Source of the DNA: Acidobacteriota bacterium
GTDB taxonomy: Bacteria > Acidobacteriota > UBA6911 > RPQK01 > JAJDTT01
Direction of reading: 5' to 3'
DNA: 64,000 bases
Assembly (NCBI GenBank): GCA_965217775.1
Contig: CBDCJH010000002.1
Location: 5,248,001-5,312,000 of the forward strand
Shown here piece after piece: positions 3,849 through 60,384 of the stretch. Made by a program: the position numbers and the translations under genes. How positions within the stretch are numbered: the stretch's first letter is position 1; each line of letters opens with the position of its first letter. The notes beneath the pieces are model-generated. The model worked only from the letters and a program-made list of their open reading frames with translations, was not told where the DNA came from and made no database searches.

Positions 3849-3855
3849 GGGCTCC

Positions 3856-3918
3856 TGGGAGGGGACATTCTTGTCCCCCGGACATCCCGGAATCGAGGGT
3901 TACAAACCCCCACTCCCA
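3856..3918. repeat. REP doublet (TGGGAG-foot hairpins, inverted pair)
   Basis: TGGGA-GGGGACA-ttct-TGTCCCC on +, and TGGGAGT-GGGGGTT-tgt-AACCCTC on -, between converging gene ends. Confidence 0.7.
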
Positions 3919-14599: not shown

Positions 14600-14675
14600 T
14601 GGAGGCGGCGACCGGATTCGAACCGGTGAATGGAGGTTTTGCAGACCTCTCCCTTAGCCACTTGGGTACGCCGCC
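14600..14675 (-). tRNA. tRNA-Cys(GCA)
   Basis: GGCGGCG acceptor stem, GAGGT-CTGCAAA-ACCTC anticodon arm, GGTTCGAATCC, encoded CCA. Confidence 0.97.
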
Positions 14676-38337: not shown

Positions 38338-38424
38338 GCCCGGGTGGCGAAAACAGGTAGACGCGCAGGACTTAAAATCCTACGAAGGTAACTCTCCTTG
38401 TGGGGTCGACTCCCACTCCGGGCA
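38338..38424 (+). tRNA. tRNA-Leu(TAA), degenerate or possible pseudogene
   Basis: GCCCGGG/TCCGGGC acceptor, GGTAGACGC D-arm, CTTAAAA loop. But C-A mismatch in the anticodon stem, GTCGA T-loop and no CCA. Confidence 0.7.
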
Positions 38425-55588: not shown

Positions 55589-56254
55589 TTACGGCGACGC
55601 CTCGTCCGCCAGATTCTGCATCCGCCGAAACGTCTCGCTCGGAGAGGGCGTTCCGAAGATGGCCGAACCGGCCACCAGAATCTCTGCACCGGCCCGGACC
55701 GCATCCTGTGTATTGGCGGGTCCGATGCCGCCGTCGACTTCGATCTTGACCCGGAGATTGTCCCGGGCCGCCATCGCTTTCAATTTTCTCATTTTGTCGA
55801 AGCTCGTGGCAATGAAACGCTGGCCCGAAAAACCTGGATTCACCGACATGATCATGACGTGGTGGCACTTGGGGAGGATCTCCTCCAGGACTCCGACCGG
55901 CGTGTGCGGGTTCAGGGCCACGCCCGGTTTGGCCCCCTTTTCCCGGATCCTGTCCATTAGACGGTCCAAATGCAGAACTGTTTCATATTGGACGCTCAGA
56001 TAGTCCGATCCCGCGTCGATGAAAGCGTCCGCCATCTCTTCGGGGTTGGAGATCATGAGGTGGACATCCAGGACCATGTCGGTCTGCTTGCGCACCGCCT
56101 CGATCACCGGCAGACCGAAGCTCAGGTTGGGGACGAAATGTCCATCCATGACGTCCAAATGCAGGATCCGGGCTCCTGCCTGCTCCATTTCCCTGACGGA
56201 ACCTCCCAGGTCGAGAAAGTCGGCCGAGAGTAGAGACGGGGCGATCCAAGGCAT
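55589..56254 (-). CDS. rpe: Ribulose-phosphate 3-epimerase
   Basis: IAPSLLSADF, HLDVMDGHFVPN, MSVNPGF.GQ, VDGGI. Confidence 0.96.
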   Translation of the reverse strand: MPWIAPSLLSADFLDLGGSVREMEQAGARILHLDVMDGHFVPNLSFGLPVIEAVRKQTDMVLDVHLMISNPEEMADAFIDAGSDYLSVQYETVLHLDRLMDRIREKGAKPGVALNPHTPVGVLEEILPKCHHVMIMSVNPGFSGQRFIATSFDKMRKLKAMAARDNLRVKIEVDGGIGPANTQDAVRAGAEILVAGSAIFGTPSPSETFRRMQNLADEASP

Positions 56255-57012
56255 CAGCTGGCGACCTCCAGAATGATGGTGTCGTTTTCCTTCAACATGT
56301 TTCCCGGCCCGGGGTATTGGCGGACCACCCTGCCCCGAGTCCTCCTGGCCCCTCTGGTGTAATTGACCTGTGGTGACTCGAAGCCGTTCTCCCGAATGAG
56401 GGCCCGGACCCGGTTCAGATCCAAATCCCTGAAATCAGGCATGATGTAGCGTTGGACCCGCTTCTTGCCCACCAGGACGTCGACCCGGGCCGTGAGAACT
56501 TCCGTGGACCCCGGACCAGGGACTTGACGGATGATCTGGTCCGACTCCGCGTCGGCAAGGAAGATCTCGCTGGTGTGTCCTATCTCGTAACCGGACTGTT
56601 GTGTGACCAGGCGAGCGACCCGCTGTGTGGACCCGATAAGAACGGGGACGGGATTGTGTTGCACTCCCAGGCTCACCATCACCTGGACTCGCCCGTTGGC
56701 CTTGATGCGGACGCCTGGAGTGGGAATCTGAGAGACGACGGCACCGTTGGGAATCGACGCGTCGTAGACTTCTCCCGCCACCGCCATCCCCAGGCCGACC
56801 GCTTCGAGTTTCTTGTTTGCCTGTTCCATGTCGACTCGGATGACAGACGGGACCACGACCTCCGTCGCCCGGGTCGCCATGCGCATGCTGATGTTCAGGC
56901 TCAGCAGGAAGACGACCATCAGGACGCCGGCCAACAGGCCCAGCTTGACCACTGAAATAAACGGATTGCGCCGTTTCCCCGAACCCTTCTTCCTACGTCT
57001 CTTGGAGCCCAT
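56254..57012 (-). CDS. PASTA domain-containing protein
   Basis: TM helix followed by three VP...G.V..Q.P.PG modules. Confidence 0.85.
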   Translation of the reverse strand: MGSKRRRKKGSGKRRNPFISVVKLGLLAGVLMVVFLLSLNISMRMATRATEVVVPSVIRVDMEQANKKLEAVGLGMAVAGEVYDASIPNGAVVSQIPTPGVRIKANGRVQVMVSLGVQHNPVPVLIGSTQRVARLVTQQSGYEIGHTSEIFLADAESDQIIRQVPGPGSTEVLTARVDVLVGKKRVQRYIMPDFRDLDLNRVRALIRENGFESPQVNYTRGARRTRGRVVRQYPGPGNMLKENDTIILEVAS

Positions 57013-57086
57013 GCCCGATCTTTGCCTGTGGAGCAAACACGCTACCATACCGTCAGGGGCGACTCCAAGCGTTGGGAGCGGCGACT

Positions 57087-59003
57087 GTGCGCCAGGCTAA
57101 CTGGCACAAGATAGGCGGTGGAAGTCCGCCGAAACGAAGGACTAACCATCCACGTTTCTCCGCGAGCCGTGCGTGGGCACCCGTGAGGGTGTCGGCGAAG
57201 CGTCGGTAGCGGTGCGTATGGGCAGGCTATTGAGCATCGAAAGCTCCATGATCGGAAGTGCCGAGGCTGTAGTCGCGGTCGAAGGCAACACCGGCTGGAC
57301 CGCCCAGGTGAGGGCCGGCCGGGCTCCGCGGTGTCAAAGAACCCAGGCACGTACGCAAATCTTGTTCCGGGACCTGGGAGGGCTTCATTTCACGCCGGGG
57401 GGTCGCCCCGGGGTCGCATGAGAAAGGAGTAACCCGAAACTCATGATGGACGGAACGAAGCAATCGGATTCATCCATAGTAGCGATGAAGCGGGCGAACA
57501 AAGAGGGGCGACCCTCGGCGGAGCCGGTGGAGCGAAGGGATGGAACCAAGGGGAATTCGGTGAGCCAAAGCACGCGCCGGACGCAGAGTCGGGGGAGCGT
57601 GTCCCAAGCGGTGGACCGGATACGGCGAGCGATCGCGAGAAACCCCAAGGAGCGACTGACCGCGCTGCTGCACCATATCACTGTGGAGGCCCTGCGCCGC
57701 TCCTACCTCGGACTGAGGAAGGATGCTGCGCCGGGAATCGATGGGGTACGGTGGGAGGAGTACGGGGCGAAGCTGGAAGAGCGACTGCTGGACCTGCATC
57801 GCCGCGTGCACCGGGGCGCGTACCGAGCGCCTCCCGTCCGGCGGGTGAACATCCCCAAGCCGGATGGAAGGACACGACCGCTCGGCGTGGCCGCGCTGGA
57901 GGACAAGATCCTCCAGAAGGCAGTCGTGGACGAGCTCCTGACGCCGATTTACGAGGCGGAGTTTCTCGGGCTCAGCTACGGGTTCCGGCCCGGACGGAAG
58001 GCGCATGACGCGCTGGATGCACTGGCCTACGGGATCGAACGGCGGAAAGTCAATTGGATCGTGGACGCGGACATTTGGACGTTCTTTGATGCGATCGACC
58101 GGGACTGCCTGATGCAGTTCGTGGAACGGCGGATCGGAGACCGGCGGGTGCTGCGGCTGCTGCGCAAGTGGCTGAACGCCGGGGTGATGGAAGAAGGGAC
58201 CTGGTCGGACACGGGGAGAGGGACGCCTCAGGGCGCCAACGTCTCGCCGGTCATGGCCAACGTGTACCTGCACTACGTGCTGGACCAATGGTTCCATCGG
58301 ACGTGGCGCCCACGAGTCCCCAATGGCGAAGCGATCCTGGTGCGATATGCGGACGACTTCGTGGCCGGATTCCAGAGACGGGCGGACGCGAAACGGTTTC
58401 TCCGAGACCTGGGGGAACGGTGCGCCGAGTTCGGGCTGGAACTGCACCCGGAAAAGACGCGACTGGTGGAGTTCGGACGATTTGCGGCAGCGGATCGGCG
58501 ACGACGCGGGGAGCGGAAACCGGAGACGTTCGACTTTCTGGGGTTCACGCACTACTGTGCGAAGACCCGGAAGGGACGGTTCCGGCTGGGGCGGAAGCCA
58601 AGCGCGAAACGGATGAACCGGACCCTGCAACGGGTGGGGGAGAGGCTGTGGAGACAACGGCACGCGGATCACTGGGAGGTCGGGAAATGGTTGAGCCGGG
58701 TCCTGAACGGCTGGCTGAACTATTTTGCGGTTCCGGGGAGTACGCGCTGGCTGCGAGGTTTCTGCTATCTGCTGCAACGGCGGTGGCTGCGAGCCTTGCG
58801 CCGCCGGTCCCAACGCGACCGCTTCAGCTGGGGACGGTTGCGACGGATGACGGAATTGCTCTGGCCATCCGTGAAGATCCGTCACCCGTGGCCGGGGCAG
58901 CGGTTCCGCTGGCCGTCCACACCCAAGGTAGGAGCCGGATGCCTTAACGGGCACGTCCGGATCTGTGCGGGGGGCGGCAGGAAACTGCCGTTCCTACCGT
59001 GAC
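57087..59003 (+). mobile_element. Group II intron (class E-like), antisense to the host operon
   Basis: 5' GTGCG; domain V GAGCCGGATGCC...GGCACGTCCGGATC; domain VI ending ...CCTACCGTGAC. EBS1 AGTCGC (57271-76) pairs with IBS1 GCGACT (57081-86). Confidence 0.92.
57443..59002 (+). CDS. ltrA: Group II intron reverse transcriptase/maturase (no En domain); true start may be a downstream GTG
   Basis: LTALLHH, APGIDG, IPKPDG..RPLG, SYGFRPGR, GTPQG, RYADD, FDFLGF. Confidence 0.93.
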   Translation: MMDGTKQSDSSIVAMKRANKEGRPSAEPVERRDGTKGNSVSQSTRRTQSRGSVSQAVDRIRRAIARNPKERLTALLHHITVEALRRSYLGLRKDAAPGIDGVRWEEYGAKLEERLLDLHRRVHRGAYRAPPVRRVNIPKPDGRTRPLGVAALEDKILQKAVVDELLTPIYEAEFLGLSYGFRPGRKAHDALDALAYGIERRKVNWIVDADIWTFFDAIDRDCLMQFVERRIGDRRVLRLLRKWLNAGVMEEGTWSDTGRGTPQGANVSPVMANVYLHYVLDQWFHRTWRPRVPNGEAILVRYADDFVAGFQRRADAKRFLRDLGERCAEFGLELHPEKTRLVEFGRFAAADRRRRGERKPETFDFLGFTHYCAKTRKGRFRLGRKPSAKRMNRTLQRVGERLWRQRHADHWEVGKWLSRVLNGWLNYFAVPGSTRWLRGFCYLLQRRWLRALRRRSQRDRFSWGRLRRMTELLWPSVKIRHPWPGQRFRWPSTPKVGAGCLNGHVRICAGGGRKLPFLP

Positions 59004-59073
59004 TTCTTGTCGCCGAACTCCAGAGTAACGAGCGTGTGAGCGTGTGAGGATGTGAGCGTGGAAGCGGCCGTCT

Positions 59074-60384
59074 TCAACCCCCGGTCCCGGGAGGCGTGGG
59101 GGAACTGGGAGTCCCCCCTCCCTTCCGGACCAGACACGCGGCGAAGAACGCCTCGCGCTTCAGGAAATCCTCCCCCGGCTGCCGCAGCAACTTGGCCTCC
59201 GGTTCCACGTCGAGCAGTTCCTCAACCACCCCAAGGTTCTCCTCCGGTTCCGTGGAACAGGTGGCGTAGATCATCTGCCCCCCGGGACGCAGCATTCGAA
59301 AACTGCTCCGCAAAAGGGAACGCTGAATCCGGGCCATTCGTTGGACGTCCTCCTCGGCAAGCCGCCACCGAATGTCCGGGTTGGCCCTCAAGGTGGCGGT
59401 CCCGGTGCAGGGGACATCCAACAGGATGAAGTCGAAGCGGTTCCGGAAAGGGGGGTGGACCAGATCGGCCTGCACGGCCCGGAGTTGCGGGATCCGGTAG
59501 AGGTCGGCTCTGGCTCTCATCTGACGAAGGCGGGACCAGCTGAGGTCACAACTGACAATACGGGAATCGGATCGTTTGCGGGCCTGAAGAATGAACGATT
59601 TCCCCCCGGGAGCCGCGCAGAAATCGCCCAGCACCCGGCACCGGCTGAGGTCGCCGAGGTGAGCGACTGCCTGACTGGCCGGACTCATCAGGAAGCAGTG
59701 ACCTCGACGGTAGAGGGGATGCCTGACGAATGACCTGGAGTTCACTCTGACGCAATGGGGAAGGCGGGGATGAAGTTGAAAGGGGACTCCTTCCCGGTCC
59801 AGCCGCCGGCAGAATTGCTCTCGCGTCGTACGGAATGGATTGACCCAGAGATGCAGCAGCGGCGGGCGGTTGTTTCTCTCCAGGATCGTCTGCGTTCCCT
59901 CGTGGCCGTATCTTGTGAGGTACCGGCGCACAAGCCATTCGGGGTGACTGAAACGGATGGACAGACTCCGGGTGTCGTCCGCTTCCGGAGCAGTGGTCCG
60001 TTTCCGGAGGAAACGACGGAGGACGGCGTTGACCAGGGGTCCGGCGGAGGATTTTCGGAATTCCCTGCAGAGCCGGACCGACTCGTGAACCGCGGCGCGC
60101 TCCGGAATCCTCAGGTAATTGAGTTGAAACAGGCCCACACGCAGGATCTGGAGCACTTCCGGATCCAAGCGGGACCGGGGACGCTCCAACAAAGAATCCA
60201 GTTGATAGTCCAGGAGGGAGCGGTTTCGAAGGACGCCGTAGGCCAGTTCCGTCGCCAGTCGTCTGTCTCGCTCCGGCAGAGAGTCGAAATCGGAGGTTTC
60301 GAAATGGGTTTCCAGGGAGACCCGCCGGCCGCTTTCACTGTCCAGGAGCACCCGCAGGGCCACGGACCTGGCCGTGCGCTTCAC
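59074..60384 (-). CDS. rsmB: 16S rRNA m5C967 methyltransferase RsmB/Sun
   Basis: NusB-like N-domain, FSHPEWL, DFCAAPGGKS, LLDVPCTG, YATCS..PEEN. Confidence 0.9.
   Translation of the reverse strand: MKRTARSVALRVLLDSESGRRVSLETHFETSDFDSLPERDRRLATELAYGVLRNRSLLDYQLDSLLERPRSRLDPEVLQILRVGLFQLNYLRIPERAAVHESVRLCREFRKSSAGPLVNAVLRRFLRKRTTAPEADDTRSLSIRFSHPEWLVRRYLTRYGHEGTQTILERNNRPPLLHLWVNPFRTTREQFCRRLDREGVPFQLHPRLPHCVRVNSRSFVRHPLYRRGHCFLMSPASQAVAHLGDLSRCRVLGDFCAAPGGKSFILQARKRSDSRIVSCDLSWSRLRQMRARADLYRIPQLRAVQADLVHPPFRNRFDFILLDVPCTGTATLRANPDIRWRLAEEDVQRMARIQRSLLRSSFRMLRPGGQMIYATCSTEPEENLGVVEELLDVEPEAKLLRQPGEDFLKREAFFAACLVRKGGGTPSSPTPPGTGG

Follow-up and report, generated by a model that had tools for sequence, protein, structure and literature searches.

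Why does a group II intron lie in the loop of a repetitive extragenic palindrome (REP), and can the sequence of the intron itself explain its presence there? This question is raised by a locus in a 64,000-nucleotide stretch of an Acidobacteriota genome, referred to here in its entirety as the window (contig CBDCJH010000002.1, positions 5,248,001 to 5,312,000, or G000:C2:5248001-5312000, where G000 is the source genome and other genomes of the genus are labelled G002, G004-G007 and so on). Following the analyses described below, we consider it very probable that this intron belongs to a lineage of endonuclease-less, IIB-like group II introns that homes on a family of REP-type hairpins. The parts of the intron and of its two exons, including the exon-binding sites (EBS) and the intron-binding sites (IBS) with which they pair, are as follows.

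57073..57086, plus strand: 5' exon, the 5' half of the split REP, TGGGAGCGGCGACT, with the foot GGAG
57075..57079, plus strand: IBS2, GGAGC, in the 5' exon and followed by a spacer G
57081..57086, plus strand: IBS1, GCGACT, made of the 5' stem arm and the first loop T
57087..59003, plus strand: complete group II intron of 1917 nt, with a GTGCG start and a ...CCGTGAC end
57121..57343, plus strand: domain I, core through D1d region, with an end-to-end RF02005 match
57243..57247, plus strand: EBS2, GCTCC, pairing with the REP foot GGAGC, in a variable loop of RF02005
57271..57276, plus strand: EBS1, AGTCGC, pairing with GCGACT, in a terminal loop of the RF02005 alignment
57336, plus strand: an A, the candidate EBS3, which would pair with the T that begins the 3' exon and is called solely from covariation
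57443..59002, plus strand: intron-encoded protein (IEP) of 519 aa, with a reverse transcriptase (RT) domain containing YADD and a maturase, and lacking a D/En domain
58932..58963, plus strand: domain V (DV) from the RF00029 alignment, with AGC at 58933-58935
58967..59003, plus strand: domain VI (DVI) from the RF00029 alignment, with 58996 as the likely branch A (placed by eye), the distance to the 3' splice site being 7 nt
59004..59015, plus strand: 3' exon, the 3' half of the split REP, TTCTTGTCGCCG, with the loop remainder TTCTT and the 3' arm GTCGCCG

An earlier sequence-only reading of this DNA had proposed that excision of the intron restores a REP hairpin, and the coordinates bear this out: the flanks of 57087 and 59003, once joined, form the stem CGGCGAC/GTCGCCG with the loop T+TTCTT, so that the split hairpin reads GGAG-C-GGCGAC-T|TTCTT-GTCGCC. 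At orthologous loci the two exons align with hairpin halves and with unique sequence on both sides, and the fold of the 5' half alone is unremarkable, as expected of half a hairpin. The pairings proposed in the same reading, of EBS1 at 57271-57276 with IBS1 and of EBS2 at 57243-57247 with the foot at 57075-57079, were found exactly where it had placed them and provide 6 + 5 base pairs between guide and 5' exon. Both guides fall in variable loops of the RF02005 consensus, which is the expected place for such elements.

The ribozyme itself has the D1-D4 core, DV and DVI together with the 5' GUGYG and 3' AY of a group II intron. RF02005 (group-II-D1D4-6) matched 57121-57343 over its full model length with 166.4 bits against a cut-off of 49, and the DV/DVI model RF00029 matched 58930-59003, also at full length, with 37.5 bits, slightly below its cut-off of 40. 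This second match ends at 59003, the same position as the 3' splice site predicted earlier; the termini are GTGCG at 57087 and GAC at 59001-59003. A Pfam search of the IEP (E<=0.001) returned RVT_1 only (3.8e-34), with no nuclease or DNA-binding domain at that threshold, and TIGR04416, the equivalog model for group II RT/maturases, covered residues 86-455 with 352.6 bits against a cut-off of 300. The earlier description of the intron as endonuclease-less is thus upheld, since the protein carries neither type of domain. The TIGR04416 match leaves some 64 residues after it, of which roughly the final 24 are specified by DV-DVI. Compared with ltrA genes of proteobacterial plasmids, the IEP shows 52-58% amino acid identity, and one of those genes has an RF02005 match as well. 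The class E-like label given in the sequence-only reading is a putative one. The intron does not fit bacterial class C (IIC), given that EBS2 is present and covaries with its target, that insertion is inside the loop, and that no T-run follows the hairpin.

Two side observations concern the end of this reading frame. It remains open through DV and DVI (window 58932-59002), with the stop 1 nt before the 3' splice site, and a tblastn match to a Klebsiella plasmid intron extends 54 nt beyond the annotated ltrA stop of that record. The similarity at the C-terminus of the IEP may come from conservation of the ribozyme and not of the protein.

The target is a multicopy repeat, as the sequence-only reading required. 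The strict hairpin GGCGRCTTTCTTGYCGCC occurs 109 times in the source genome, against 0 for the same pattern read backwards, and the loop TTTCTT occurs 115 times. In a profile of these 115 copies the foot is GGAG (positions -6 to -3 being G102, G102, A104 and G91), and the stem shows compensatory A/G-T/C variation. Perfect hairpins with a GGAG foot number 1152, compared with 293-730 for five control feet. The strict REPs are mostly extragenic: using our own crude GC3 heuristic for coding calls, 30/106 fall in coding DNA while such calls make up 84% of the genome (p=2e-36). The strict motif was found in 7/8 other genomes of the genus and in 0/32 genomes outside it. Sister families have the same foot and loop, for example GGGGAC...GTCCCC, which is represented in the window at 3855-3878 and on the minus strand at 59099-59122; the conserved foot reads GGAG, with GTAG in one small subfamily. 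The REP at 3855-3878 does fold, and neither of these two unoccupied sister REPs folds better than shuffled sequences at such a length (z of -1.5 and -0.4); therefore the evidence for REPs is the repeat family and not the fold energy. Two other identities were rejected for the hairpins. They are not terminators, having no T-run after the hairpin, and they are not footprints left by the intron, since more than 100 copies are free of it and REPs occur in tandem arrays and beside genes for REP-associated tyrosine transposases (RAYTs).

We also observed that the REPs are often arranged as direct tandem repeats, with a unit of about 28 nt and up to 10 units in a row (G007:C15:19534-19803 and many others; in the source genome C2:3685800-3685845 and 3696501-3696546), in which GGCGAC and GGCGGC stems often alternate.

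The sequence-only reading had spoken of REPs amplified by RAYTs. One part of this stands on adjacency: the source genome has three RAYT-like genes (Y1_Tnp/NF047646-like, 50.7-78.3 bits, all below the NF047646 cut-off of 80), and in the genus a clear GGAG-footed REP lies at or just after the stop codon in 8/15 such genes, some of which also have an upstream REP, with degenerate REPs at 3 more of the 15. The amplification itself is something we infer from this adjacency, and RAYT-like enzymes would be its agents. As further observations at these genes, in G006 (L057, C1:2482000-2483900) the REP directly after a RAYT-like stop codon is occupied by an intron without an open reading frame (ORF), and several RAYT-like genes (L061, L062, L065, L001 and L059) have on both sides, near -70 and +35 nt, another palindrome, GGGGGTT-AAA-AACCCCC or GGGGGTA-AAA-TACCCCC, which is present in 13-55 copies per genome of the genus.

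If the hairpin is a homing site, other copies of the intron should be found in REPs. BLAST identified 10 full-length elements in the source genome, 1 internally deleted, 4 ORF-less and 1 5' fragment of 67 nt. The full copies are 98.8-100% identical with identical termini and different outer flanks, and 9/10 have an intact 519-aa ORF with YADD, the remaining one having a frameshift. The ORF-less copies, of about 640 nt, consist of the 5' 550 nt and the 3' 96 nt and are 82-87% identical. Insertion was in a hairpin loop for 14/15 elements with both junctions, and 13 of the elements split the hairpin GGAG-N-GGCGRYT | T(T)C..-RYCGCC. Another hairpin, interrupted by an ORF-less copy, is GTAGG-GGCACCC | CTTGT-GGGTGCC, and the 5' flank of the 67-nt fragment is also a REP half. 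Over five genomes, a stem of at least 6 bp spans the junction at 34/42 insertion sites, compared with 937/20000 random positions (4.7%). The suggestion that the flanks of other copies and homologues are REPs is well supported by these counts.

One full copy of the source genome (C2:3929720-3931636, minus strand) presented a different situation, being inserted in the sense orientation inside a protein-coding gene at a site with no hairpin and with good IBS matches. Its IBS3 is mismatched (G), and the host frame is continuous across the junction, from which it follows that the host gene would depend on splicing.

Copies could in principle have been carried about as DNA, by REP recombination, by segmental duplication or as RAYT cargo, and not by retrohoming. 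REPs are recombination-prone, one pair of ORF-less copies (4407265 and 4406059) is tandemly duplicated, with a common 3' flank, and one ORF-less copy of G006 adjoins a RAYT gene. Against this, the intron ends are base-exact at every copy while the sequence outside the 25-nt hairpin differs, and the intron splits one hairpin and is not bracketed by two. Spread as DNA would also leave no role for the complementarity and covariation between EBS and IBS, nor for a replication-strand bias that the REPs themselves do not have. Altogether we find this explanation very hard to credit.

The strand bias was determined from the cumulative GC skew of the source contig C2, which bottoms out at 5.01 Mb and peaks near 1.69 Mb; dnaA, at 5,010,750, coincides with the minimum. 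The invaded strand is the lagging-strand template in 15/16 elements (binomial p=5e-4), the sole exception being near the terminus. Empty strict REPs are divided 56:50 between the strands, with no bias, and among GGAGNGGCGRCT sites 11/74 in the lagging-template orientation are occupied, against 1/63 in the leading-template orientation (Fisher p=0.006). In four single-contig relatives, where the terminus was taken as opposite dnaA, the copies on the lagging template among the matches listed were 10/10 in G002, 6/7 in G005, 7/7 in G006 and 3/3 in G004 (26/27), for a total of 41/43 copies listed. This bias is a signature of endonuclease-less retrohoming at replication forks, in which the dependence of priming on the fork would be the inferred part. 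It agrees with published descriptions of RmInt1 and other endonuclease-less introns: RmInt1 reverse-splices into the lagging-strand template (PMC8914252), and endonuclease-minus introns are described as being primed at replication forks (PMC4424553, Zimmerly and Semper 2015).

The steps of insertion can be proposed from these results. An excised particle of lariat and IEP would meet a REP on the transiently single-stranded lagging-strand template at the fork. EBS2 would pair with the conserved GGAG(N) foot, EBS1 with the final five bases of the 5' stem arm and the first loop base, and the candidate EBS3 with the next loop base, followed by reverse splicing either where stem and loop meet or 1 nt further in. 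The nascent DNA strand would then prime cDNA synthesis, a source of primer that is suggested because the IEP has no nuclease. The ORF-less 640-nt derivatives use the same sites, presumably with the IEP supplied in trans, and mobilisation in trans of copies carrying the same guides would be the simplest reading of their distribution. Among the matches listed, G006 was observed to have only ORF-less copies (7) and no full-length copy; if they are truly alone, they would be served by another IEP or be relics.

Base pairing as the basis of targeting predicts that guide and target change together. For 27 copies, and for another 14 ORF-less ones from G005, G006 and G007, we aligned the 5' region of the intron, and this gave six guide sets over five genomes, each complementary to its own flanks:

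AGTCGC: targets GCGACT, GCGGCT and GCGATT (GCGRYT), and also GCGGTT, at L017, through G-U wobble
AATCGC: target GCGATT
AGTCCC: target GGGACT
AACCCC: target GGGGTT
GGGTGC, with EBS2 CCTAC and EBS3 G: target GCACCC, with GTAGG and C
GGATGC, with EBS2 CATGC and EBS3 T: target GCATCT, with GCATG and A

Intron position 250 (window 57336) carries A, G or T in step with a first 3'-exon base of T, C or A, respectively, and it is the sole such column among the first 330 intron positions, which makes it, on the alignment, a candidate for EBS3. The covariation of EBS and REP across species that the sequence-only reading had called for is accordingly present, in EBS1, in EBS2 and at the candidate EBS3, and its claim that a multicopy REP family serves as the intron homing site is supported by guides that can pair with the foot and 5' arm; the covariation is seen within species as well as between them. 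In EBS1 AGTCGC, the G and U face exactly the two transition-polymorphic positions of the REP stem, and because of these wobble positions a single guide covers the whole GCGRYT set.

The genome G005 is informative in this respect, having 0 strict copies of the source-genome REP and 213 GGAGNGGGGACTNNNAGTCCCC sites, of which the other eight genomes have 5-22. It holds intron copies with EBS1 AGTCCC, matching these abundant sites. A count of GGGGGTTNNNNACCCCC failed to set G005 apart, the pattern mostly catching the other palindrome, GGGGGTT-AAA-AACCCCC. The single full-length copy of G005 (EBS1 AACCCC) has a small target family, with 3 GGGGGTTTCCTACCCCC sites among those listed. From the sequences, guides in this genus seem to follow changes of the host hairpin family, and point changes in EBS1, EBS2 and EBS3 would have retargeted sub-lineages to other REP families.

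The same data bear on whether the hairpin is recognised as a structure, as in class C, with the ribonucleoprotein reading the folded DNA and the EBS-IBS pairings only fine-tuning the cut position. Five stem sequences, even the rather different GTAGG-GGCACCC-CTTGT hairpin among them, share one insertion geometry, at the junction or 1 nt further in, and class C introns are known to recognise hairpins (PMC4424553, PMC12584367). However, descent offers another explanation of this constant geometry, because the REP families have foot and loop in common. EBS2 is present here and covaries, whereas the description of class C introns in PMC3522654 gives them EBS1 and EBS3 only. In addition, insertion is inside the hairpin and not after it, IBS1 is a stem arm that must unpair before EBS1 can bind, and sites with no hairpin and good IBS matches are used. 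We therefore regard guidance by structure as unlikely. The folded hairpin itself may be a help, as in class C, or a hindrance that hides IBS1.

It is also conceivable that the intron is associated with REPs only passively, an ordinary homing site of 12-13 nt being located in a repeat by chance and the intron not being adapted to REPs as such. Base pairing does fully account for targeting, a G004 sub-lineage (89% amino acid identity, three copies) homes into a non-REP repeated sequence, and relatives from other Acidobacteriota and from other phyla, at about 50% amino acid identity, lie outside such hairpins. On the other side, retargeting has been repeated and always to another REP family of the same genus at the same place, a host whose dominant REP is different has guides to match, and the wobble-capable positions of EBS1 face polymorphic positions of the REP. 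These observations make a purely passive association quite improbable.

Homing on REPs as an adapted habit could go further. The lineage may be a dedicated hyperparasite of the REP/RAYT system, landing at the fork on the single-stranded lagging template that Y1 transposases use, reading foot and stem, tolerating polymorphism through wobble, and re-evolving its guides with REP turnover; we take this as a serious possibility but stop somewhat short of calling it probable. Because the target is a self-renewing, mostly extragenic repeat with more than 100 copies, it offers the intron many harmless landing sites. The terms safe harbour and parasite of the REP system, used in the sequence-only reading, are interpretation.

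Several points weigh against homing on REPs as set out here. Since IBS1 is inside the stem, a folded hairpin would hide it and not expose it. Five of the 42 sites are not REP hairpins (the coding gene at C2:3931636, three G004 copies with identical flanks, and L036 in G005), and the use of such sites means that a hairpin is not obligatory. Copies within a genome, and genomes within the genus, are not independent. The EBS3 call depends on a single alignment column, and the terminus used for the strand assignment is measured in the source genome only. The window intron is antisense to both neighbouring genes. Finally, in contigs from four public runs we found no direct sign of present mobility and no contig joining 57086 to 59004, as an empty allele or a spliced RNA would; contig breaks at the intron ends are to be expected of a repeat. 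The summed depth of the intron in the public runs (DNA, and RNA labelled sponge metagenome) is far above that of its flanks, the RNA library included. On the reading preferred here, the lineage would be active at present.

The neighbourhood of the insertion is as follows:

3855..3878, plus strand: unoccupied sister-family REP, GGGAG-GGGAC-ATTCTT-GTCCC
56254..57048, minus strand: PASTA-domain protein gene; the intron is antisense to it, 38 nt upstream of the gene start
59074..60384, minus strand: RsmB-like 16S rRNA methyltransferase gene, flanking the intron
59099..59122, minus strand: unoccupied sister-family REP, GGGAG-GGGGGAC-TCCCA-GTTCCCC, in opposite orientation and with a counterpart at orthologous loci

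The spacer between the PASTA gene and rsmB is conserved in 8/8 other genomes of the genus, and the intron is absent from all 8. One to three intact REPs of the intron-target family are present in the orthologous spacer in 6/8, with a GGGGGT-type hairpin in G005 and none in G007. The REPs at the intron locus are inverted neighbours 83 nt apart. The sequence-only reading had placed an opposed hairpin on the minus strand at about 59100-59123, and this is a real sister-family REP, one base from there; likewise, the REP similar to the target that it had noted at 3856 was found at 3855-3878. As an observation on the spacer itself, the number of REPs (loci L067-L074) ranges from 0 to 3 among members of the genus, and the array thus expands and contracts.

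Among known systems, the closest are RmInt1 of Sinorhizobium meliloti and the endonuclease-less IIB-like classes D, E and F, which also have an RT and maturase only and are targeted through EBS1/2/3-IBS pairings (PMC8914252, PMC1802570, PMC4424553). RmInt1 likewise inserts at the fork into the lagging template, and into a multicopy, non-essential target, in its case ISRm2011-2 (PMC8914252, PMC1802570). Here, in contrast, the target is a REP hairpin of about 25 nt and not an insertion sequence (IS), insertion is in the loop, and the guides are diversified over several REP families. Class C introns resemble the present one in having abundant intergenic hairpin targets, no endonuclease and often a high copy number (PMC4424553, PMC12584367). 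They differ in landing downstream of a terminator or attC hairpin, by recognition of structure and with no EBS2, whereas the intron described here matches RF02005, has a covarying EBS2 and inserts inside a hairpin of which the stem arm is IBS1. Full-length and ORF-less introns have also proliferated together in one genome, with diverged targets, in the case of TeI3/TeI4 of Thermosynechococcus elongatus (PMC2882425), but those are described with driver IEPs that contain an endonuclease and with heat-aided DNA melting, and that description includes no REP target.

REPs are known as specific or preferred targets of the IS elements ISPpu9, ISPpu10, IS1397, ISPa11 and ISPsy8, which unlike the intron are DNA transposons; ISPpu9 and ISPpu10 are each reported in REPs in 7/7 copies (Tobes and Pareja 2006, PMC1525189). 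The same paper reports a group II intron of P. putida KT2440 associated with REPs in 2/9 copies (PMC1525189), compared with 14/15 in a hairpin here, together with base-pair complementarity and covariation. The repeats themselves resemble REP/RAYT (REPIN) systems in being short GC-rich palindromes with a 5' tetranucleotide foot, in more than 100 copies, mostly extragenic and restricted to a lineage, and in adjoining single-copy Y1 transposase genes similar to NF047646, at scores below its cut-off. They depart from classical REPs in the foot, which is GGAG (GTAG in one subfamily) and not GTAG or CGTC as described in PMC3733652, and from REPINs and bacterial interspersed mosaic elements (BIMEs) by their many direct tandem arrays, which repeat about every 28 nt, in place of inverted doublets.

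A 2015 review lists three target specificities of bacterial group II introns, namely homing sites, terminator motifs and attC (PMC4424553), and the introduction of a 2025 paper names only class C and a start/stop-codon lineage as specialised, with no REP-targeting lineage mentioned there (PMC12584367). In the full-text literature searched we found no prior REP-homing lineage of group II introns, the P. putida KT2440 case being the one REP association recorded for such an intron; subscription papers and supplements were outside this search, and priority is not assured. Homing with full EBS1/2/3 pairing into the loop of a REP hairpin would be a further targeting strategy for these introns. Should the lineage indeed be a hyperparasite, this would be a fourth natural specificity beside unique homing sites, terminators and attC, with a predator-prey coevolution of introns and REPs within a single genome.

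A retroelement and the REP/RAYT system would be linked in this way as nested parasitism. The six guide variants are a natural experiment on the evolution of intron specificity, and, as genomic evidence that insertion depends on the fork, a lagging-template bias of 41/43 alongside unbiased targets is unusually clean. The host genus is of the soil/sponge type of Acidobacteriota, and the finding is relevant to the fields of group II introns and of REP/RAYT systems. Multicopy, neutral and genus-specific landing pads could also serve targetron-type engineering of Acidobacteriota that are hard to manipulate. Elsewhere in the window, two tRNA genes (RF00005) were identified at 14603-14675 on the minus strand and at 38338-38424 on the plus strand.

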